Shown here piece by piece: positions 3,735 to 19,411 of a stretch of 37,694 bases of DNA. The translations under genes were made by a program, and so were the position numbers. Within the stretch, counting starts at the first letter, position 1. Every line of letters starts with the position of its first letter. The notes under the pieces are model-generated. The model was given only the letters and a program-made list of their open reading frames with translations, was not told the origin of the DNA and did not search any database. Source of the DNA: Candidatus Woesearchaeota archaeon (GTDB taxonomy: Archaea; Nanobdellota; Nanobdellia; Woesearchaeales; 21-14-0-10-32-9); NCBI GenBank assembly GCA_007131205.1, contig SLQZ01000062.1, forward strand, positions 1-37,694, written 5' to 3'.

Positions 3735-4415
3735 GCCTTCCAGGAGAGACAGGATTTCTTTATAAGGATTCTTTGCCTTAACAATGCCTGAAGCAACCAA
3801 GACTCCTTTAGCCCCTAGATTTACTGCGTCTTCAACGTCTTTCTTCTTATTTATGCCTGCGCCGCAAAGCACAGGAATCCGGGATACTCGAAAGACACTC
3901 TTCACACTCTTCGAGATGATTTCAGGGTTTGCCTCGCTTACAGAGATTTTGCCGCCGATAAGCTCAGGAGGCTCAACAGCAATCATGTGAGGTTGATAAG
4001 AAGCGATTTTTGCTGCACGAGTATTATTTGTTGCACAGCAAACAGTTATCAACCCCAACGCCTTACACCTCCTAATTGTCTCAGATAAAACATTATCTGA
4101 AAGCCTCTTCTCGGAATGGTTCAGAAGCGTTCCTATTGCACCGGCTTGCTTTATTGCTTCAGGAGTAATAGTTCCTGTGTGCGCACCCTGTGGTTCATGG
4201 TCAACATGCTGGGCTAGGACGGGTATGCTGACTTTGCCGGAAACCAGGCAAAGGTCTGTTGGTTGAACTGCTACCATGACTTGCTTACCGGTTTTCTTCG
4301 ACGCTTTTTGTGCAAGCAACGCAAGCTTTAATGCGTTCTTCCCAGTGCTTTCCTTGTACGTCTTGAAATTGATTACCAGAACAGGCTTTTTCAAGGGGTT
4401 ATAGCTCATAAGCAA
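3726..4415 (-). CDS. tpiA: Triosephosphate isomerase (archaeal short type)
   Basis: VINFKTY, LLNHSEKR, AVEPPELIGG, GAGI motifs. ~229 aa, typical of archaeal TIM. Confidence 0.85.
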   Translation of the reverse strand: MLMSYNPLKKPVLVINFKTYKESTGKNALKLALLAQKASKKTGKQVMVAVQPTDLCLVSGKVSIPVLAQHVDHEPQGAHTGTITPEAIKQAGAIGTLLNHSEKRLSDNVLSETIRRCKALGLITVCCATNNTRAAKIASYQPHMIAVEPPELIGGKISVSEANPEIISKSVKSVFRVSRIPVLCGAGINKKKDVEDAVNLGAKGVLVASGIVKAKNPYKEILSLLEGLS

Positions 4416-4449
4416 TATGCCGAGTTCAGGGTTTTAAATATTTTTGTAT

Positions 4450-5217
4450 TTATTTCTTGGCTTTGAGCTTGTAGATAAAGTAAACAGCTATTACGGTAAA
4501 TGCAAGTGAGAGGTATTGGCCAGTGCTAATTCCTAATAGTATTGCTTCACCTGCAGGGTCTCTTAGGAAGTCAAGGAAGAACCTCGTAGAGTTATACAGC
4601 AATACGAAGTACCAGAATAAGAGGCCTTCTTTTAACTTCCATGTCTTGCTTACAAAATATAGTGCTCCTGTGAGGAAGAAGTCTTTTGCAGCAGCATATA
4701 ATTGGTAGGGATGCCTGCAACCGTCGAATCCTGGGAAGACAACGCACCAAGGAGCATCACTCCTCGTACCAGGGAGCTCACCGTTGATAAAATTCGCTAT
4801 CCTTCCCAGAGCCAAAAAGAAAAAAGCAGGGAGCGCCATCAAGTCTGCTAATGAATAAAACCTTATCTTGTACTTCCTGGAAAAAAGAAGTATTGCTATT
4901 ATTGCTCCGATTAGGCCTCCGTGGAAAGACATGCCTCCGTGCCACACCATGAATAATTCCAAGGGATTTGAGAGGAGAACTCCCGGGGAATAAAAGATAA
5001 ACGTAAAGATTCTCGCTCCTAATATTACGCCTGCTAGCAGGTAAAGCATGAATACTTCAAGCTTGTCCTTGTCCATGCCCTTAATCATGCCTTTCTTTAC
5101 CCTGCTGGACATATAGAAATATATGAATAAGAAGCCGAGGAAGTACACTAGGCCATAATACCTTACTTGCAGGAATCCTAAGTCCAGCAAAACCGGGTTA
5201 ATGTTATGTATAAACAA
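4450..5217 (-). CDS. lgt: Prolipoprotein diacylglyceryl transferase (bacterial-type Lgt)
   Basis: VRYYGLVYFLGF, WHGGMSFHGGLIG, GRIANFINGELPG, HPYQLY and FLRDP motifs matching Lgt. Polytopic membrane protein. Confidence 0.8.
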   Translation of the reverse strand: MFIHNINPVLLDLGFLQVRYYGLVYFLGFLFIYFYMSSRVKKGMIKGMDKDKLEVFMLYLLAGVILGARIFTFIFYSPGVLLSNPLELFMVWHGGMSFHGGLIGAIIAILLFSRKYKIRFYSLADLMALPAFFFLALGRIANFINGELPGTRSDAPWCVVFPGFDGCRHPYQLYAAAKDFFLTGALYFVSKTWKLKEGLLFWYFVLLYNSTRFFLDFLRDPAGEAILLGISTGQYLSLAFTVIAVYFIYKLKAKK

Positions 5218-5234
5218 TTTTTTATTCCTCTTTT

Positions 5235-5546
5235 TTATAGCTGGAATGTATCAATAATTTTTTGCTTGAACTGGTCTTTTTGCAATGCCCCAACGATTCT
5301 TCCAAGCTCTTCTCCATCTTTATACATTATGAGGGTGGGAATGCCTCTTACTCCTGCTGTCGCAGCGACATCTCCGTGCTCGTCTACGTTAAGCTTCGCA
5401 AATTTTACATCTTTCATTTCGTTGCTTAGCTCTTCGAAGACTGGAGCGATCATCTTACATGGAGCGCACCATTCAGCCCAGAAGTCCACGATAACATTTC
5501 CTTCAGATATTGCTTCCTTGAAATTCTCTGTTGTTAATTCCTGCAT
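5235..5546 (-). CDS. trxA: Thioredoxin
   Basis: WAEWCAPCKM active site (WCxPC), GIPTL motif, 103 aa. Confidence 0.9.
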   Translation of the reverse strand: MQELTTENFKEAISEGNVIVDFWAEWCAPCKMIAPVFEELSNEMKDVKFAKLNVDEHGDVAATAGVRGIPTLIMYKDGEELGRIVGALQKDQFKQKIIDTFQL

Positions 5547-5585
5547 TTTGATACCACCCAGAAGAACCGGAGAAATAAGTTCTTT

Positions 5586-5780
5586 TTATAAGTTATCCTT
5601 TTTAGCCCTGCTTAATACCTTTGGGTTATCTGTTACTACCTGTTTTACTCCGCCTTGCTTGTTTACGTCTGAGAACCTGAACAATAGGGAGCAATGCTCG
5701 CAATGATACCTGTACTTGTAGTTGCCCTTAACATCCCCTTTGCATATCGGGCATCCTGAGGCAATGATTTTTATGTACAT
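5586..5780 (-). CDS. Small zinc-ribbon protein, unknown function
   Basis: Start set at internal ATG 5780 (MYIKIIASG...). CPIC...(x13)...CEHC four-Cys ribbon. The longer 119-aa ORF would overlap the S19e gene. Confidence 0.4.
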   Translation of the reverse strand: MYIKIIASGCPICKGDVKGNYKYRYHCEHCSLLFRFSDVNKQGGVKQVVTDNPKVLSRAKKDNL

Positions 5781-5927
5781 GAGCTTATCGCAATGGTTTC
5801 TTGTTTTTATTGTTTGCTGAAAAAAAACGTGGAGAACCATAAGCTTTTTAAACACCTTGTTATTTCTCGGAGCTGGTTTAGAGGTTCTAGCACAGACCAT
5901 AAAATTAAAGAAATAGGTGCTTATCAA

Positions 5928-6353
5928 ATGAAGGATGCAGAACATGGATTAATTGTGGAAAAGCTTGCGGAAAAGCTTAAGGAAACTGTTAAGGCCCCTG
6001 AGTGGGCAGGATTTGTAAAAACGGGGCATGGAAAGCAAAGGCCTCCAGCAAGAAGTGACTGGTGGAATATCAGGTCTGCGGCGGTGCTTTTGAGTGTCCA
6101 GAAACTAGGCCCTGTTGGGGTTTCCAAGCTAAGCGTTAAGTACGGGACGAAAAAAAACAGGGGTGTTAAGCCGGAAATGGCAACTCCTGGCTCAAGGAAT
6201 GTTTTAAGGAAGATATTGCAGCAATTGGAGCAGGGACGGCTTATCAAGCAAGCAGAGAAAGGCGTTCACAAGGGACGAATTGTAACGAATGAAGGCAATA
6301 GGCTCATAATTGAGGCTTCTAAGGAAGCAAAAAAAGGCGTTGGTGATAAATAA
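5928..6353 (+). CDS. rps19e: Ribosomal protein S19e (eS19)
   Basis: PEWAGFVKTGHGKQRPP..DWWNIRSAAVLL..LGPVGVSKL..YG motifs. ATG 5928 is preceded by AGGTG. Confidence 0.85.
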   Translation: MKDAEHGLIVEKLAEKLKETVKAPEWAGFVKTGHGKQRPPARSDWWNIRSAAVLLSVQKLGPVGVSKLSVKYGTKKNRGVKPEMATPGSRNVLRKILQQLEQGRLIKQAEKGVHKGRIVTNEGNRLIIEASKEAKKGVGDK

Positions 6354-6355
6354 AA

Positions 6356-6529
6356 ATGTCAAGGTTCATAAACATAGCTAAAAAGCTAAGGCTTATAAAG
6401 AAGTCAAGGCAGGACAGGTGGGCTCCGTTCTGGACGGTTCCTAAGATATACGGTACGGGCAGGCGTATACACCCTGGAAGGCATACAACCGTAAAAAGAA
6501 ATTGGAGAAGGAATAAGACCAAGGTGTAA
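6356..6529 (+). CDS. rpl39e: Ribosomal protein L39e (eL39)
   Basis: Hand translation gives MSRFINIAKKLRLIKKSRQDRWAPFWTVPKIYGTGRRIHPGRHTTVKRNWRRNKTKV*. 57 aa, below the ORF-track cutoff. It sits in the canonical position before L31e. Confidence 0.8.
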   Translation: MSRFINIAKKLRLIKKSRQDRWAPFWTVPKIYGTGRRIHPGRHTTVKRNWRRNKTKV

Positions 6530-12428: not shown

Positions 12429-13145
12429 TTAAACTTTGTTATTCTCTTTAGATTCTTTCTTCTTCTCTTCTTTGCCTTTAGCTTTGAACTCTGCTTCAAT
12501 GCCCAAAATTCTCTTTATGTCTTCACTGAGCATTTTAAGGTATTGCTCCGGGATTTCTTGTAGTAGTGTTATTACTGCTTTTCCTTCTTTTGCTTCTGCT
12601 TTTTCGTAAGGAATCCTAATGATGTCAAGAATTGACTTTACTTTTTCTTCGGTATCCTCTATTTTTTTCTTTATGTTTAAGTCGTAAACCACTTCTTTTC
12701 CTGCTAAAGGATGGTTAAAATCCACTATTACCCTTCCTCCGCTTACATTCCTCACAGTTCCGAGTTGGTTGTCTATGTTTAGCTGCAAGCCTATGTATGG
12801 CTGAATATTTTGCTTTTTAAAGACGTTCATAGGTATTAATTTTAGCTGCTTTGGGTTCTTCTTGCCGTAAGCTTCGTCAACAGAAAGCTTTACCTCGTGC
12901 TTGCCAAGAGTAAGGCCTTCAAGCTTTTTGTCAAGGCCGGAAAGAACGTGTTTTTCTCCTACGCAGATCTTTATGGGCTTGTACTCTTCCTCGTGGCTAT
13001 GGTCATAAGACTTGTCAGGGCTGTGTTCGTGTACGAGGCCTGCTTTTTCAGCTTCTTTTAAAATAGTGGTGTCGTAAACTTGGTTGTCATCAGCAGTCCT
13101 GGCTGTGTACTCGAGCTCTACGAAGTCGCCTTTTTTTATCGTCAT
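12429..13145 (-). CDS. FKBP-type peptidyl-prolyl cis-trans isomerase (long archaeal SlyD/FKBP26-like) with K/E tail
   Basis: KKGDFVELEYTAR, GLDKKLEGLTLGK, VDFNHPLAGKEVVYDLNI. Confidence 0.8.
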   Translation of the reverse strand: MTIKKGDFVELEYTARTADDNQVYDTTILKEAEKAGLVHEHSPDKSYDHSHEEEYKPIKICVGEKHVLSGLDKKLEGLTLGKHEVKLSVDEAYGKKNPKQLKLIPMNVFKKQNIQPYIGLQLNIDNQLGTVRNVSGGRVIVDFNHPLAGKEVVYDLNIKKKIEDTEEKVKSILDIIRIPYEKAEAKEGKAVITLLQEIPEQYLKMLSEDIKRILGIEAEFKAKGKEEKKKESKENNKV

Positions 13146-13407
13146 TAGTCTTCCTCTTGTTTTCCCTGGCTGAAGGCTTCAAGCTGGCTGCCGTTAAACC
13201 TTTCAGAGAGAATTGGGCTTTTGTTAGAGGATGGACTCGACGGCGTTTTATAAATGTTTCGAATTAGGGTTTAGATAGGATATTTGCTCTTCATTAGTTG
13301 TTTTTTGAAAGGTCAATTTTTTCCGGTTTCTTCCGTTGTTTTTCCGGTTTCCTCTTCGGAATTATTTTTAAGCAGTTTGATTCTTCTTATTGAGGAGGTT
13401 GATAATC

Positions 13408-13839
13408 ATGAGTATAGATTCATATTTGAAATCAAGGGCAGAAGAACTAAGAGGTCTTGCGCTGTCAAAGGAAGGTACAGATATGTATTTGGTTATAGAT
13501 AGCCTTGCAAGAATGTACGAATCCAGAAATAAAAACAGCAAAGATAACATGGTTTTGGCGGATTCTTCAAAGAATTTTTACAACACCATAAGATTCATCG
13601 AGGAATACTTACTTGACAATAATAGGGATAACGACTATTTAGAGTCTCGTATCAATCTTTTAGAGGAACTTCCTGGAATCGGAAAAGGCAATAGTTTCGG
13701 CTTTCTAATATTTTACAATTTACTATCAGGAAATATTAAGAAGAAAGATGACAAAAAAGACGAATACGCATGTGTAAACGATATTGAAAACATAGTAATA
13801 AATGAAGAAATAAGGAAAATGACAGGTAAACCGGCTTAA
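13408..13839 (+). CDS. Hypothetical protein with a helix-hairpin-helix-like LPGIGKG motif
   Basis: ATG 13408 is preceded by GAGGAGGT. LLEELPGIGKGNSF resembles an HhH motif. No family recognised. Confidence 0.4.
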   Translation: MSIDSYLKSRAEELRGLALSKEGTDMYLVIDSLARMYESRNKNSKDNMVLADSSKNFYNTIRFIEEYLLDNNRDNDYLESRINLLEELPGIGKGNSFGFLIFYNLLSGNIKKKDDKKDEYACVNDIENIVINEEIRKMTGKPA

Positions 13840-13890
13840 AATTGTTTTTAATTGTAAAATTATTTATACCCTGTGCTTTTCTCCTGTGGT

Positions 13891-14856
13891 ATGGATGAGG
13901 ATAACAGCCAAATAGATTACCTTAAGAATGAGCTTAAGCCGTTGTTCGTGGAGCACTACAAGGAATTATTAGGAAATGAATACGAGGAATTCGTAAGGGC
14001 TTCTTCTGAGTACCAGCGCAAAGCGGTAAGGGTAAATACTCTTAAGAAAAGCGTTGAAGAAATAAGGGAGCGGCTAGAGGAAAAATGGGTTCTTGAACAA
14101 GTGCCGTGGTGCGCTGAGGGCTTTTGGATGAAGTACAGGGACGGGAAAAGGTTTGATATTGGGAATACGCCGGAACACCAATTAGGCTACATCTACGTCC
14201 AGGATGCAGCATCAATGATACCTGTAGAAGTGTTGAATCCTTCTCCTGGAGACATAGTACTGGATATGTGCGCAGCCCCAGGAAGCAAGACAAGCCAGAT
14301 AGCGCAGAAAATGGGTAATAAAGGATTGCTTGTTGCAAATGACGCGGACGGGAAAAGGCTGGGTGCTCTCGGGATAAACTTGCAGAGAATGGGAATTCAT
14401 AATTCTATGATTACAAGAATGGAAGGATTCCACGTGAAAAAACAAGGGGAGGGCTTTGACAAAATACTCGTAGACGCTCCATGCACAGGAACAGGGACTA
14501 TAATGAAAACTTATAAAGTCATCGGGATGTGGAGCCACTCATTAATTGACAGGATGAAAAGAATACAATATAAGCTTGCAAGCCACGCATTCACGTTGCT
14601 AAAGCCAGGCGGAACCATGGTTTATAGCACTTGCACTTTAGAGCCAGAGGAAAACGAAGGAGTAATCACAAAGCTATTAAAAAAACATCCTGAAGCTGAA
14701 CTGCTAGATATAAAATTCAGCGGAAAGAAAAGCCAGCCCGTTACAGAGTTTAAAGGAAACAAGTATGATCCAAACGTAAAAAAATGCTTAAGAATCCACC
14801 CACAGGATAACGGCACAGAAGGATTCTTCGTGGCAAAAATAAAGAAAAACAATTAA
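13891..14856 (+). CDS. RNA (tRNA/rRNA) cytosine-C5 methyltransferase, NOL1/NOP2/Sun family
   Basis: DMCAAPGSKT (SAM motif I), ILVDAPCTGTG (motif IV, PC), YSTCTLEPEENE (motif VI, TC). Confidence 0.85.
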   Translation: MDEDNSQIDYLKNELKPLFVEHYKELLGNEYEEFVRASSEYQRKAVRVNTLKKSVEEIRERLEEKWVLEQVPWCAEGFWMKYRDGKRFDIGNTPEHQLGYIYVQDAASMIPVEVLNPSPGDIVLDMCAAPGSKTSQIAQKMGNKGLLVANDADGKRLGALGINLQRMGIHNSMITRMEGFHVKKQGEGFDKILVDAPCTGTGTIMKTYKVIGMWSHSLIDRMKRIQYKLASHAFTLLKPGGTMVYSTCTLEPEENEGVITKLLKKHPEAELLDIKFSGKKSQPVTEFKGNKYDPNVKKCLRIHPQDNGTEGFFVAKIKKNN

Positions 14857-14903
14857 AAATCCCGAACAACTCACAAATAAACAGAAAACAGATGTGAAAA
14901 AAA

Positions 14904-15539
14904 ATGGTTTTAGCAAAAATCATCATCGGATTATTCTCAATAGCAATTCTGTACATAACCACCATTTTTTTACTGTCAAGACTATTCATACCAAACATAG
15001 GGTTTAAGAGAAAAATCAAAGAAAAACTGCCAAGAGACGCAAAGAAAAAGCTTATAGAAATAAAAAAATCCTCGAAGAACAAGAAAGAAGCCCTAAAAAA
15101 AGTAATAGACTACCAACTATCCATTTTTTACTCGGAGATGAGACAAGCCTTCCCCAGGTTCAAATTCTTATTCGAATCAAGCTTTAACAAATTATGGAAA
15201 AAGAAAGGATTCTTGCACTGCCACCAACAAAACTTTGTACTGCGAAGACTATTACTAGGAACAAAGATGTTTGAGGAGAAAGACATCAAGCTAAAGCACA
15301 CATTCTGCTACCTAAACATACACCAATACCTAAAAATAAATATAGGCAAAAAGAAAAAAGAATGGATAAACGTAGACGCGTTCGCGATGAGCTTAGGCTA
15401 CAATTTAGGAGAAGTGTTGCCTAATTTTGCTTATCCAAGCATGAAAGCACGCGGGATAAACCCGTTACGAGACCCAATAAAAAGCAAGAAAATACTCGAA
15501 AAAACCACAATGCTCTCACTATTCCTGAAAAATAAATGA
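14904..15539 (+). CDS. Membrane-anchored protein with possible transglutaminase-like (Cys-His-Asp) core
   Basis: N-terminal TM (IIIGLFSIAILYITTIFLL). Then GFLHCHQQNFVLRRLL ... NIHQYLKI ... WINVDAF, with spacing compatible with a C-H-D papain/TGase-like triad. Weak, by eye only. Confidence 0.35.
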   Translation: MVLAKIIIGLFSIAILYITTIFLLSRLFIPNIGFKRKIKEKLPRDAKKKLIEIKKSSKNKKEALKKVIDYQLSIFYSEMRQAFPRFKFLFESSFNKLWKKKGFLHCHQQNFVLRRLLLGTKMFEEKDIKLKHTFCYLNIHQYLKINIGKKKKEWINVDAFAMSLGYNLGEVLPNFAYPSMKARGINPLRDPIKSKKILEKTTMLSLFLKNK

Positions 15540-15937
15540 AAAAAAAACATGTATTGGAAGGAGAATACATAATTTACGAGTACGGAACACAAGACTATAC
15601 TGGTGAAGGATGGGCATTAGCACTCTACAAGCTGGAAGGCAATGAATTACAAGAAATATACCATCCTGTAGATAATGAGAGCGAGCCAAGCAACATAGGC
15701 GAGCAAAACATAGAAGAACTGATAAATGTTATGATAAAAAAAAATATTAGAAAAGTCTACACGGTGTTTCACCTACAAGAATTCTACAGAATCCCCAGTA
15801 ACTGGTTTAGCCTACAAGAACAAGACACAGAAGAAATAGAGTTATGGGCAGAATACAAATCCATAGAAAAAGATGGCTATGAGCACCAAAGGTTAAAAGA
15901 AAACGGAATAGAACTGCTCTTCCACGAAGAAAAATAA
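15536..15937 (+). CDS. Hypothetical acidic protein, no recognisable domain
   Basis: 133-aa ORF. ATGA overlap with the upstream gene; the stop directly abuts the downstream ATG. Confidence 0.4.
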   Translation: MKKKHVLEGEYIIYEYGTQDYTGEGWALALYKLEGNELQEIYHPVDNESEPSNIGEQNIEELINVMIKKNIRKVYTVFHLQEFYRIPSNWFSLQEQDTEEIELWAEYKSIEKDGYEHQRLKENGIELLFHEEK

Positions 15938-16303
15938 ATGAATATGAAAGCCCTATCCTTAAAACAGCCATACGCAGAACTCGCAGTAAGCGGAAAGAAA
16001 ACAATAGAATTAAGAAAATGGAATACAAGTTTCCGAGGAGAATTCTTAGTGCACGCATCAAAGCAACCAGACAAAGAAGCAATGGAAAAATTTGGCTTTA
16101 AAGAATTGCCATTAGGAGCAATCATAGGGAAAGCAGAATTGGTAAGCGTGAAGAAATATGAGAACGAAGAAGAATTCGAAAAAGACAAAGACAAGCACTT
16201 AGCCACGAAAAAATATGGTGTGTATGGATTCATACTAAGAAACGCAAAGAAAACAAAGCCAATACCCGCAAAAGGAAAACTAGGATTTTGGAAATATGAA
16301 TGA
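15938..16303 (+). CDS. ASCH (PUA-like) domain protein
   Basis: ALSLKQPYAELAVSGKKTIELRKWNTSFRGEFLVHAS...LPLGAIIGKAELV matches the ASCH N-terminal signature (SIKQPWA..I..G.K..E.R). Confidence 0.65.
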   Translation: MNMKALSLKQPYAELAVSGKKTIELRKWNTSFRGEFLVHASKQPDKEAMEKFGFKELPLGAIIGKAELVSVKKYENEEEFEKDKDKHLATKKYGVYGFILRNAKKTKPIPAKGKLGFWKYE

Positions 16304-16329
16304 ATAATAGTTTGAAGACAAAACAAAAT

Positions 16330-16527
16330 CTACGACATCATTTTAGCCAGAAAAAACCACACAACGGTAACAAAAAAAATAGCAAAAAGTGCTACCACTA
16401 ATTCCCAAGCTTTATTCTTAAACTTTCCTTCGAGCTTTTTAGAGATAAACTGACCTACTAATAGAATCATACCAGCAGTCACGCCTGCAATTACGCCCGG
16501 AAATAATGTTTCAAAAAACCCCATCAA
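16330..16527 (-). CDS. Small membrane protein (2 TM), unknown function
   Basis: 65 aa, two hydrophobic helices, co-oriented downstream of the DpnA-like methyltransferase. Confidence 0.35.
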   Translation of the reverse strand: MMGFFETLFPGVIAGVTAGMILLVGQFISKKLEGKFKNKAWELVVALFAIFFVTVVWFFLAKMMS

Positions 16528-16562
16528 GTTAGTATTAAAACTACACTTATAATTTTTGCGGA

Positions 16563-17342
16563 TTAGTTCAATGTGCTTTTCAGCCTTCTAACGCTTAACT
16601 TCAAGTAATCTTCTTCTTTATCTATGCCGATGTACTTTCTTCCGTGCATGCTTGCGACCAGTCCTGTTGTTCCTGAGCCGTTGAAAGGGTCCAAAACAAC
16701 ATCTTTTTCGTTGGTGCTAGCCAGGACTATTCTTTTTAGTAGCTCTATCGGTTTTTGTGTTGGGTGTTTGCCTGATTTCTTTTCTTGCATCGGGGTTAAA
16801 GGAATTTTCCATATACTTCGCATTTGTTTTCCTTTCGGGCTTATATCATCGTGCCATTCTTTCATTTCTTTATAATTGAAAGTGTGCTTTGCTTTCTTGT
16901 CTTTTTTAGCCCAAATAATGGTTTCATGGGCGTGGGCGAAGTATCTGCAGGAGAGGTTTGGAGGCCCGTTTGGCTTAAACCACGAGATTTCGTTTAAAAT
17001 GTGAAATCCTAATGCCTGTAACGCATGCCCTACTTTGTATATGCTATGAGGAGTGCCTGAAATCCATATTGTTCCGTTAGGTTTTAAGAGTTCTCTGCAG
17101 TGTTTTAGCCAGGAATAAGTGAATTCGTAGTCTTTCTGGAAGCCATTTGATTTATCCCAGTCTCCCTTGTTGACAGAAACCATTTTTCCTGCTTTGCATG
17201 TTATTCCGCCGTTGGATAAATTATAAGGAGGATCTGCAAATATCATGCTTACCGAATTCTTCCTGATTTTTGGCAATACTCCGAGGGAATCTCCTTTGAT
17301 TAGCATGAAATTCTTGTCTTTGAAGAATGGTTTAATAGTCAT
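16563..17342 (-). CDS. Beta-class DNA N6-adenine methyltransferase, DpnA/M.MboIB-like
   Basis: Motif IV before motif I: IFADPPYNLSNGG ... GDWDK ... NGTIWISG ... PNLSCRYF ... GKHPTQKP ... VLDPFNGSGTTG. From memory it is collinear with S. pneumoniae DpnA. Confidence 0.85.
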   Translation of the reverse strand: MTIKPFFKDKNFMLIKGDSLGVLPKIRKNSVSMIFADPPYNLSNGGITCKAGKMVSVNKGDWDKSNGFQKDYEFTYSWLKHCRELLKPNGTIWISGTPHSIYKVGHALQALGFHILNEISWFKPNGPPNLSCRYFAHAHETIIWAKKDKKAKHTFNYKEMKEWHDDISPKGKQMRSIWKIPLTPMQEKKSGKHPTQKPIELLKRIVLASTNEKDVVLDPFNGSGTTGLVASMHGRKYIGIDKEEDYLKLSVRRLKSTLN

Positions 17343-17440
17343 GTAATGCTAAGAATCATACTTGTTTATATTTGTTGTGTGGACTTGTCCAGTGCATCTT
17401 TCAGGTTAACCGGAAGATTTACGAAAAAAATGGGAAAATA

Positions 17441-17450
17441 TTTATATTTA
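17441..17450 (+). promoter_or_regulatory. TATA box (TTTATATTTA) about 26 nt upstream of ATG 17472; suggests a leaderless or short-leader transcript for the orphan ORF
   Basis: AT-rich element read directly. The spacing to the ATG matches archaeal TATA-to-TSS distance. Confidence 0.4.
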
Positions 17451-17471
17451 TTTAAAAAGGATGATACCATT

Positions 17472-18089
17472 ATGAATCGCCAGGAACTATTTGAAATTGT
17501 TAAAAATCTTGAGTTCGATAAAAAAATAAGTATTATAGAGGAGAATGGTGTTGAATTATACTTATTGAGGCCTTCTGTACTCCCTAAATCTCTTAAAAAC
17601 AAATATGATGTAAATAAAAATTTTCAGATATGGGTTAAAGAAGGGGAGCGAGAATTCAGACCGAATCATCTTCGTTTAATTATCGACTTAAATCTTAGAG
17701 TCAGGTCTAATCCTGAATTAAAAAATAAGTTACTCTTAGCAATGGACAATATTTTTTATGGGGAAGATGTTGAGAAAGAAATATCTTTGTTAAACAAGGA
17801 AAAATTCCAACATTACCTTAACCCATTGAGAATAATAGCATATATGGCCTTGCTCTTTTTGATAGAACAAGAATATAACTATACGGGAGAAAGTAAGTAC
17901 GATCCGAAAACCTTGTTTTTGCAAGGTTGGATACGGGAAAGCATTGATAGCCCAAAGGAATTAGACAACATGTGCATGAGTATAGCTAACGGGCAACCCC
18001 CAAAAGCCAAATATACTTGTAAGGAAAATAAAAAACATAAGAAATACGAAGAAAAAAGAAAAGAGTTGTGGTATCTGGAAGATCAATAA
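17472..18089 (+). CDS. Orphan protein between the two methyltransferases; candidate restriction endonuclease of unrecognised family
   Basis: 205 aa from ATG 17472; the ORF is open from 17346. No DpnII-family, HNH or GIY-YIG signature is visible. The only weak PD-(D/E)XK-like string is IIDLNLRVRSNPELK. The 3' end overlaps the Dam-like gene by 7 nt (convergent). Confidence 0.4.
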   Translation: MNRQELFEIVKNLEFDKKISIIEENGVELYLLRPSVLPKSLKNKYDVNKNFQIWVKEGEREFRPNHLRLIIDLNLRVRSNPELKNKLLLAMDNIFYGEDVEKEISLLNKEKFQHYLNPLRIIAYMALLFLIEQEYNYTGESKYDPKTLFLQGWIRESIDSPKELDNMCMSIANGQPPKAKYTCKENKKHKKYEEKRKELWYLEDQ

Positions 18090-18910
18090 TTAGTTACTAC
18101 AACCTCGTCTATTTCTCCCCTTCCTTTAGCGTCGCTGTTAATACTTCTCCTGGCTTTTACTTTCCTAATATTATATCCTTTGTACAGTTTATGGATTAGT
18201 TCGCTGTCGCTGTTGCTAAGCATTACTTTGCAGCCTTTTGCATCTAGCTTCATGAAAACTTCTGCTAATCTGACCTGGTCTTCCCGGCCAAAATCCAGGT
18301 CGGTGTAACTAGTGAAATTATTCTTTTTGAAAGGCCAATATGGAGGGTCGAGATAAACAAAGTCGCCTTTCTTAGCTGTTTCAAGGACTTTTTTGAAGTC
18401 TTGAGCTTTTGCCACAACATTTTTTAGTAAATGACTTGCTTTTTTCAGTGTTTCTTCTCTGACAATCTCAGGGTTTTTATAACTCCCTATGGGTACGTTA
18501 AATTCGTTTTTCGAGTTCACCCTAAACAATCCATTGAAACACGTCCTGTTCAAATAAAGGAGTAAAGCTGCTTTTTTCAAAGAGTCTTTTTCCTTGTTAT
18601 AAGCATTTCTAGCTTCGTAATAATAATCTTTTGAGTGATTTTTAGCATGTATTCTTAGGAGTTTTATTAGCTCTGAGAGGTTATCCCTTATCTGGACGTA
18701 TAGATTTATGAGTTCTGAGTTGTAGTCGGATAAGAAAATTTTTTTTGGATTAAATTTTTGTTTTACGTGGAAGAATACTGCTCCACCGCCTACGAATGGC
18801 TCGCGGTATACTTCTATGTTTTCTGGGTAGAACTCTTCGAATTTGGAGAGTAACTGTTTTTTACCCCCTGCCCACTTTACAAACAACGGAATCTCAACCC
18901 CCATAAACAA
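18083..18910 (-). CDS. Alpha-class DNA adenine methyltransferase, Dam/DpnM family
   Basis: KWAGGKKQLL, EPFVGGGAVFF, FNGLFRVNSKNEFNVP, GDFVYLDPPYWP, VMLSNS, VVTNY. From memory it is collinear with DpnM/Dam. Confidence 0.9.
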   Translation of the reverse strand: MFMGVEIPLFVKWAGGKKQLLSKFEEFYPENIEVYREPFVGGGAVFFHVKQKFNPKKIFLSDYNSELINLYVQIRDNLSELIKLLRIHAKNHSKDYYYEARNAYNKEKDSLKKAALLLYLNRTCFNGLFRVNSKNEFNVPIGSYKNPEIVREETLKKASHLLKNVVAKAQDFKKVLETAKKGDFVYLDPPYWPFKKNNFTSYTDLDFGREDQVRLAEVFMKLDAKGCKVMLSNSDSELIHKLYKGYNIRKVKARRSINSDAKGRGEIDEVVVTNY

Positions 18911-18973
18911 TTACTAAAAGCCTCGTAAATATAAGGTTTTTCTTTGTGGAACAAAAAAACAGAATAAGCGTAT

Positions 18974-19411
18974 TTACTTCCTTGCTTTTTCGACTTTTCC
19001 TCTTAGCAATGCGTTTAGGGATTGGTCGTTTACTTTTATGACTTGCCAGCGTACGCCTGGGATGTCTCCCTTGCTTCTGCCCATGCTTCCACCCATGCAT
19101 TCTATGACGACTTCGTCGTGCTCATCCACCATTTTCTGGGCTCCGTCACCTGGAAGGAAAGCTGTTACTTGCTTGCCGTTCTTAACAAGTTGGACACGGA
19201 CACATTTTCTCATAGCTGAGTTTGGCTGTTTTGCCTCTCTTTGAACTTTTTCAAGTACGATTCCTGAGGCTTGGCTTGAGCCTTCAAGAGGGTCTGATTT
19301 TAAGGCTAATTTAAGGACTTTCTTGGCGTACCACTTGTCTTTCTTCCTGGACTCGCTTCGCCTACTAGTAAGTTTTTTTCCTGCGTTCAATCCTGATGAT
19401 TTCTTGCTCAT
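18974..19411 (-). CDS. rps12: Ribosomal protein S12 (uS12)
   Basis: [33 protein letters not shown]. Confidence 0.95.

Follow-up and report, generated by a model that had tools for sequence, protein, structure and literature searches.

What is the gene that lies between two DNA methylase genes in a Candidatus Woesearchaeota contig (SLQZ01000062.1, assembly GCA_007131205.1), in the slot where a restriction enzyme would be expected? We call this gene T (17472-18089, plus strand) and the whole stretch of 37,694 nucleotides (nt) that was analysed the window. With a probability of about 0.58, T is the restriction component of a mobile Type II, DpnII-like GATC restriction-modification (R-M) module and has an unclassified fold. 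According to this reading, a Dam/DpnM-like and a DpnA/M.LlaDCHIB-like enzyme would methylate the GATC adenine in host DNA, and T would recognise unmethylated GATC and damage it. The damage would most likely be phosphodiester cleavage by a homodimer, and T would act with a fold that matches no known restriction-enzyme fold. The features of the cassette are as follows.

16563-17342, minus strand: beta-class N6-adenine DNA methylase, DpnA/M.LlaDCHIB-like (PF01555, N6_N4_Mtase, 212 bits)
17343-17471: divergent intergenic region with two identical TATA-like octamers, TTTATATT, and a 9-mer, TGTCCAGTG
17472-18089, plus strand: T, taken from the list of open reading frames (ORFs) with its start set by homologue alignment; 205 amino acids (aa), about 24.7 kDa, pI 8.3; member of an unannotated family and candidate GATC restriction effector
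18083-18089: overlap of the 3' ends of the convergent T and Dam-like genes, 7 nt; a GATC at 18081-18084 spans its edge
18083-18904, minus strand: Dam/DpnM-like (D12 class) GATC N6-adenine methylase, 273 aa (PF02086, 226 bits; TIGR00571 Dam, 310 bits)

The cassette and the avoidance of GATC

The plus-strand frame around T is open from 17346 to 18089 in the ORF list. Alignment with 29 homologues places the start at the ATG at 17472 (MNRQELFEIV...), and the stop codon is at 18087-18089. The first-pass annotation, a reading of the DNA letters, had described an ORF of about 205 aa that overlaps the Dam-like gene by 7 nt and is preceded by a TATA box at about 26 nt, and all of this proved correct. 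One copy of TTTATATT (17441-17448) lies 24-31 nt 5' of the T ATG and the other (17365-17372) lies 23-30 nt 5' of the ATG of the N6_N4 methylase; when seven intergenic regions were aligned, a TATA-like box was seen at a comparable distance in several homologous DPANN loci. A Shine-Dalgarno-like GGATGAT is found 6 nt 5' of the T ATG, and leaderless transcription of T is plausible from the sequence. A TATA-like box, TTATATTT (window 18926-18934, minus strand), also precedes the Dam-like gene, at about 26-33 nt from its ATG and immediately behind S12, and it therefore seems that leaders are short or missing in every gene of the cassette.

Both flanking genes are methylases, as had been proposed, since each is recognised by Pfam or NCBIfam profiles (PF01555 for one, PF02086 and TIGR00571 for the other). 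The best match of the Dam-like enzyme among PDB structures is M1.DpnII (2dpm, 252 bits; E. coli Dam reaches 150 bits). Its mechanical ORF begins at a TTG at 18910; the ATG is at 18904, and the same 273-aa protein was called in an identical Logan contig (L005). The product of 16563-17342 is 55% identical over 255 aa (E 3e-104) to M.LlaDCHIB, which serves the lactococcal GATC system of pSRQ700 as its second, DpnA-type methylase. CcrM was top-ranked for this enzyme in NCBIfam and among PDB structures, and a CcrM-like GANTC specificity was considered and rejected: with 117 sites against 138 expected, GANTC shows no depletion in the window, and the identity to M.LlaDCHIB favours GATC.

GATC is the scarcest of the sixteen 4-bp palindromes in the window, with 30 sites against 92 expected from a Markov model (observed/expected ratio, O/E, 0.33), while CTAG occurs at the expected frequency (77 versus 75). 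Such avoidance is what a host that carries a nuclease for the site should display. The likeness of the Dam-like enzyme to M1.DpnII and of the second enzyme to M.LlaDCHIB, together with the depletion of GATC, therefore identifies the cassette as one built on a DpnII/LlaDCHI-type pair of methylases. Across 640 kb of related loci GATC again has the lowest O/E (0.61) and ranks first in 20 of 72 loci; this aggregate signal is weaker because it lies near a general depletion of CTAG (O/E 0.72).

A widespread family without a recognised fold

The first-pass annotation had called T an orphan, which does not hold: a homologue search returned 582 relatives at E<=1e-3. The best 120 of these are about 200 aa long and 59-69% identical to T, and every named one among them is "hypothetical"; the divergent members carry the same label in their sources or no name. 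When 1.84 billion cluster representatives were searched exhaustively with HMMER, 110 matches came back, none longer than 240 aa, which makes this a small family of compact proteins with no domain fusions. None of the papers that a literature search brought up describes it. A scan of one genome per species yielded 93 T loci, whose products are 51-68% identical to the window protein. The archaeal hosts are DPANN lineages, Methanosarcinales, Methanoperedens, Thermoplasmata and Heimdallarchaeota, and among the bacterial ones are Clostridia (Clostridium sp. KNHs214 for one), Haloimpatiens lingqiaonensis (a complete genome), Bacteroidia, Omnitrophota, Ignavibacterium and Runella. This patchy distribution across two domains indicates horizontal transfer. 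As in mobile R-M systems, T keeps its methylase company through this spread while the surrounding genes vary by locus, and it is often better conserved than its methylases (in L017, for example, T is 60% and Dam 39% identical).

T had been said to have no similarity to DpnII/MboI nucleases and no HNH or GIY-YIG motif, and profile searches agree. No match to T was found at E<=1 in Pfam, NCBIfam, PADLOC or PHROGs, and profile searches of PDB sequences gave matches at chance level only; ten divergent relatives produced three chance-level Pfam matches, all below gathering thresholds. Neither PF04556 (DpnII) nor PF02976 (MutH/Sau3AI) matched T or these ten relatives, while the positive control R.LlaDCHI scored 289 bits on PF04556. 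In hhalign comparisons the T profile reached a probability of 0.5-0.6% against R.LlaDCHI and a nine-member DpnII alignment, 0.1% against MutH-like proteins encoded beside T in other loci, and <1% against each of two small families of PD-(D/E)XK-like neighbours, PDa and PDb. A known GATC nuclease in disguise was rejected on the strength of these searches. Pfam and Foldseek returned no HNH (beta-beta-alpha-Me) or GIY-YIG match for T, which has 3 His and 2 Cys. The searches thus brought up no known restriction-enzyme family and no housekeeping protein, either of which would have spoken against the original proposal.

AlphaFold2 models of the window protein (predicted local distance difference test score, pLDDT, 90.5; predicted template-modelling score, pTM, 0.89) and of a member about 28% identical to it (pLDDT 95.5, pTM 0.90) have one topology, in which an N-terminal helix and a three- to four-stranded sheet are followed by six helices. 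A Foldseek search with such a model had been proposed as a check on novelty, and it found no neighbour in the PDB for either model (best E 0.31-0.32, template-modelling score, TM, <0.25). In the libraries searched the T model had a single structural neighbour, BFVD entry A0A2L1IVY4, an uncharacterised 198-aa protein of Streptomyces phage BillNye (Foldseek E 9.5e-4, TM 0.53, 10% identity), which gives no functional clue.

Across the divergent family E132 and Q133 are the only invariant residues, and P64, H66, D72, L73, L128 and R155 are nearly so. The conserved P64, H66, D72, E132, Q133 and R155 map to predicted helices 66-79, 119-135 and 148-159 and may form the active site in the model; side chains of the His, Asp, Glu, Gln and Arg type are one of our reasons for favouring a restriction enzyme. 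A weak D-x9-E-x-K string had been pointed out as a possible catalytic site. It failed as a PD-(D/E)XK site: of its three residues D72 alone is kept throughout the family, E82 and K84 being variable, and both models place the stretch in a helix. The PD-(D/E)XK core itself (alpha-beta-beta-beta-alpha-beta with D...(D/E)xK on strands) was not seen in T. Two other leads were dropped. One was a likeness between residues 53-96 and the C-terminal domain of RNA polymerase alpha, which binds DNA (E 0.45-0.7); it was gone with a broader profile and was taken as chance. The other, an HxK...D (phospholipase D-like, PLD) or R-x5-H (HEPN-like) reading around H66, was a misfit by eye in spacing and conservation, with no PLD or HEPN match from Foldseek.

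The company of T and the readings of its function

The genomic context was examined in 84 loci, a few of them near-duplicates, in which every ORF within 4 kb of T was clustered and the window methylases were mapped onto all loci. Of the genes that do not encode a methylase, T alone occurs in all 84. The N6_N4 methylase cluster is present in 65 of them and the Dam cluster in 50, and at least one DNA methylase gene lies within about 3 kb of T in 80, as expected of a restriction gene. In the other four (L016, L037, L085, and L088) the contig ends just after T; two apparent exceptions, L055 and L061, carry other PF01555 methylases. This linkage in every locus with a usable flank, together with the orthology of the methylases to the DpnII/LlaDCHI pair, supports our reading. 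The commonest layouts are T converging on Dam, T converging on N6_N4, and T transcribed away from N6_N4 and towards Dam, with abutting 3' ends, and in many loci the spacing of the convergent pair is tight (from overlap to +30 nt). Convergent pairs of this kind resemble a known R-M layout, which also argues for our reading, and by analogy the genes appear to be arranged as a Type II R-M module in which T is the effector. In L006, L026, L047, and L075 a winged helix-turn-helix (wHTH) gene of about 90 aa stands directly 5' of T, with which it overlaps. Its product is a candidate for the controller of these archaeal systems, and the position of the gene supports the assignment of T because it reproduces a controller-then-restriction-gene order. 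In some loci the conserved wHTH gene instead heads a divergent Dam-DpnII operon. Its positions are listed here.

L006, 1463-1747: wHTH gene
L026 and L047, 4757-5011: wHTH gene
L075, 4757-5041: wHTH gene
L078-L083, about 4539-4825, minus strand: wHTH gene

The cassette had been described as two methylases with no recognisable nuclease. This is correct for the window and fails across the family, since 24 of the 84 loci have a recognisable nuclease-like gene beside T. The neighbours belong to four groups.

DpnII family: 11 loci (tblastn with DpnII queries)
Full-length MutH homologues: 5-6 bacterial loci (PF02976; E 1.7e-10 to MutH structures)
PDa, small PD-(D/E)XK-like: 4 loci (weak Pfam matches below cut-off)
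PDb, small PD-(D/E)XK-like: 4 loci (weak Pfam matches below cut-off)

All four recognisable families that travel with T (Dam, DpnA-like, DpnII and MutH) are GATC-specific, and the function of T is therefore almost certainly centred on GATC and its methylation state. In the remaining 60 loci no other candidate nuclease was found within 3 kb and T is intact in every one, so it has a role for which no partner nuclease is required. Three methylases accompany two nucleases in L030, L031, L047, L050, L054, L074, L083, and L089. The presence of an extra methylase in most loci with a DpnII or MutH-like gene suggests stacked, independent isospecific systems rather than a T that depends on a partner. 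The sole two T pseudogenes, in L075 (frameshift) and L080 (in-frame stop), are both from loci with a DpnII gene (2 of 11, against none of the 73 others; Fisher p ~0.016), and such decay fits functional redundancy with the nuclease. The restriction reading rests on these two patterns as well as on horizontal transfer and the avoidance of GATC.

Several observations weigh against that reading. Two isospecific nucleases in one locus are unusual, and in about 13 of the 24 loci with a nuclease-like gene it appears to share an operon with T, often co-directional and tightly spaced: T overlaps the start of the DpnII gene by 14 nt in L091, L089 is a second T-DpnII adjacency, a MutH-like gene is followed by T in L028, and T is followed by PDa in L024. 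In L051, a locus of a Micrarchaeota metagenome-assembled genome, the sole nearby Dam gene (5657-6451, minus strand) has an in-frame stop while T is intact, which could be an assembly error, a sign of a second methylase elsewhere or a real counter-example to a nuclease. Taken group by group, the related loci have a GATC ratio of 0.41-0.76 and a CTAG ratio, which is lowered in general, of 0.51-0.83, so that GATC is the more depleted by a modest margin only. Searches for T on mobile elements were negative, both by tblastn against PLSDB plasmids and INPHARED phages and in the viral contigs of IMG/VR. Finally, no catalytic or nuclease motif is recognisable in T, and Foldseek against the PDB recognised no nuclease fold in the two models. 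The initial proposal of a new nuclease family, or of another effector kept in check by methylation, is thus borne out as to the lack of a known family, the bond to methylases and the avoidance of GATC, and it is weakened by the missing catalytic motif and by the nucleases nearby.

The strongest competitor, which we take seriously although we consider it unlikely, is that T is a non-nuclease accessory that either binds DNA and regulates the genes for methylases and nucleases or reads the methylation state of GATC, and that the real nuclease is interchangeable, lost or elsewhere. The nuclease-like genes in 24 loci, which undercut the premise of the first-pass annotation, raise the standing of this explanation, as T keeps company with four unrelated nuclease families, often in the same operon. 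T is also more conserved than the surrounding methylases or nucleases, has no recognisable catalytic motif and showed the weak, non-significant resemblance to the DNA-binding polymerase domain (E 0.45) described above. A further point is the 9-mer TGTCCAGTG, which is not a GATC site and could be an operator. The 60 loci in which an intact T is accompanied by methylases and by no other candidate nuclease argue against an accessory, as does the decay of T solely where DpnII is present. Neither Pfam nor Foldseek found a helix-turn-helix (HTH) or other DNA-binding domain in T, a separate wHTH regulator precedes it in several loci, and the DpnII family works without T in pSRQ700. Moreover, a mobile pair of orphan methylase and regulator would leave the GATC avoidance unexplained.

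The 9-mer is conserved about 85-120 nt 5' of the T start, in otherwise diverged regions, in at least six loci, and is also found 5' of the Dam gene in two; the window has 2 exact copies versus 0.12 expected. It may be an operator.

Window, 17386-17394: TGTCCAGTG, 5' of T
L001, 5919-5927 (L001/L008): TGTCCAGTG, 5' of T
L012, 4918-4926: TGTCCAGTG, 5' of T
L038, 4896-4904: TGTCCAGTG, 5' of T
L072, 4882-4890: TGTCCAGTG, 5' of T
L076, 4880-4888: TGTCCAGTG, 5' of T
L001, 7613-7621: TGTCCAGTG, 5' of the Dam gene
L013, 6493-6501: TGTCCAGTG, 5' of the Dam gene

It is doubtful, and less probable than an accessory role, that T represents a new class of epigenetic-immunity effector that reads unmethylated GATC and acts other than by classical dimeric phosphodiester cleavage. 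Such an effector might excise bases, nick one strand, or recruit or activate interchangeable partner nucleases. If true, this would explain both the stand-alone pairing with methylases and the operons with DpnII, MutH-like and small PD-(D/E)XK genes.

There is only a slim chance that T restricts unmethylated GATC non-hydrolytically, for example by adenine excision, and that the small PD-(D/E)XK genes found downstream of T in some loci process the lesion. All identifiable partner methylases are amino-methylases and the site-assignable ones are N6-adenine enzymes, the fold of T is unlike that of any known nuclease, and in the operons in which T is followed by PDa or PDb the two share a single methylase. 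There is also a precedent, as base-excision restriction enzymes are a documented class (PMC10273834). The idea has analogy alone as its basis, however; Pfam and Foldseek found no likeness to the PabI half-pipe or to HhH-GPD glycosylases, and most loci are without an accompanying nuclease.

Least probable of all is a highly diverged member of the DpnII/MboI/MjaIII, MutH/Sau3AI or PD-(D/E)XK families missed by sequence methods: T does occupy the restriction-gene position of an MboI-like methylase-nuclease-methylase order, PD-(D/E)XK enzymes are notoriously divergent and the PDB matches included no DpnII-family structure for a direct comparison of folds, but the PF04556, PF02976 and hhalign results above are all negative, the 110 HMMER matches are all <=240 aa versus 300-312 aa for the DpnII-family proteins found here, the conserved residues sit on helices in an alpha-beta3/4 fold followed by six helices rather than in an alpha-beta-beta-beta-alpha-beta core, and Foldseek did not bring up MutH although the PDB contains its structures.

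Neighbouring genes, known systems and significance

The MutH homologues are about 217 aa long (E 1.7e-10 to E. coli and H. influenzae MutH). In Clostridia-type and Runella loci their genes share operons with T and with methylases of the Dam-like and DpnA-like kinds, and they look like stand-alone MutH-type GATC restriction genes. PDa and PDb are small unannotated families (about 176 and 170 aa, respectively) with D...ExK-type motifs and weak PDDEXK_5/PDDEXK_11 matches, and their genes lie directly beside T and share its single methylase.

L028, 4312-4965: MutH homologue
L050, 2392-3090: MutH homologue
L054, 2381-3037: MutH homologue
L058, 4237-4881: MutH homologue
L084, 6630-7238: MutH homologue
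L006, 2321-2881: small PD-(D/E)XK-like, group of about 176 aa
L024, 5624-6157: small PD-(D/E)XK-like, group of about 176 aa
L052, 3407-3937: small PD-(D/E)XK-like, group of about 176 aa
L059, 5623-6150: small PD-(D/E)XK-like, group of about 176 aa
L012, 5643-6152: small PD-(D/E)XK-like, group of about 170 aa
L017, 4426-4932: small PD-(D/E)XK-like, group of about 170 aa
L029, 5650-6174: small PD-(D/E)XK-like, group of about 170 aa

On an Enterococcus faecium plasmid (NZ_CP072709.1, L087) the plasmid Dam-like methylase nearest to that of the window is followed by a 430-aa "hypothetical" protein (4346-5638) composed of DUF6996, DUF6997 and DUF7226, which may be another unrecognised GATC restriction family. 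The window itself is an archaeal, DPANN-like contig in which genes for RNA polymerase A'/A'', NusA, L30e and S12 lie beside the cassette. Its G+C content is lower at about 13-19 kb (0.35-0.41) than in the flanks (0.42-0.45). This stretch (about 13000-19000), beside the S12/NusA/L30e/RpoA'' cluster, may be an acquired island, and it also contains the following.

14904-15539: unannotated ORF
15536-15937: unannotated ORF
15938-16303: ASCH-domain gene
16330-16527, minus strand: hydrophobic ORF of 65 aa

Among known systems the closest are DpnII, LlaDCHI and MboI, in which both methylases are orthologous to those of the cassette, a third gene lies between or beside them and GATC is avoided in the host. 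The differences are that T is unrelated to the PF04556 nucleases and about 100 aa shorter, and that their genes form one operon whereas T is convergent to or divergent from the methylases. Several unrelated protein families cut GATC. The Sau3AI/MutH family does so, as is proposed for T, which has no MutH/Sau3AI match. In Archaea, R.MjaIII of M. jannaschii is a GATC enzyme whose sites are protected by N6-adenine (Dam-type) methylation (PMC2615612).

We take R.MjaIII to be a DpnII-like protein of about 290 aa, a description that sets the T family apart, as it had no member above 240 aa in the HMMER search. R.PabI, which excises adenine at GTAC and has a beta-rich half-pipe fold, is comparable as a small restriction component that is paired with an N6-adenine methylase and has no classical nuclease motifs, and it is a precedent for a new fold or chemistry; T is mostly helical, and no similarity to PabI in sequence or structure was detected. 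Controller (C) proteins of R-M systems are HTH proteins of about 80-100 aa encoded upstream of the restriction gene. T is like them in being small, conserved and found beside unrelated nucleases, sometimes directly 5' of and overlapping the nuclease gene (L091). It differs in being about twice their size (205 aa) with no HTH detectable by Pfam or Foldseek, in being intact in 60 loci that have no nuclease to control, and in being itself preceded by a wHTH gene in some, and we do not count it among the C proteins.

To our knowledge, all structurally characterised restriction enzymes fall into a few catalytic folds, namely PD-(D/E)XK, HNH, GIY-YIG, PLD and the PabI half-pipe. The T family, with about 600 highly conserved members of about 200 aa that are methylase-bound in every testable locus, is a candidate for a further one. 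If T is not a nuclease, its strict linkage to GATC modules would still speak for a so far unrecognised protein that reads or regulates adenine methylation. If it is the restriction enzyme that we propose, many apparently orphan Dam methylases of DPANN and other uncultured archaea would be parts of complete restriction systems, and this would affect how the methylomes of these archaea and the exchange of DNA between hosts and symbionts are read.
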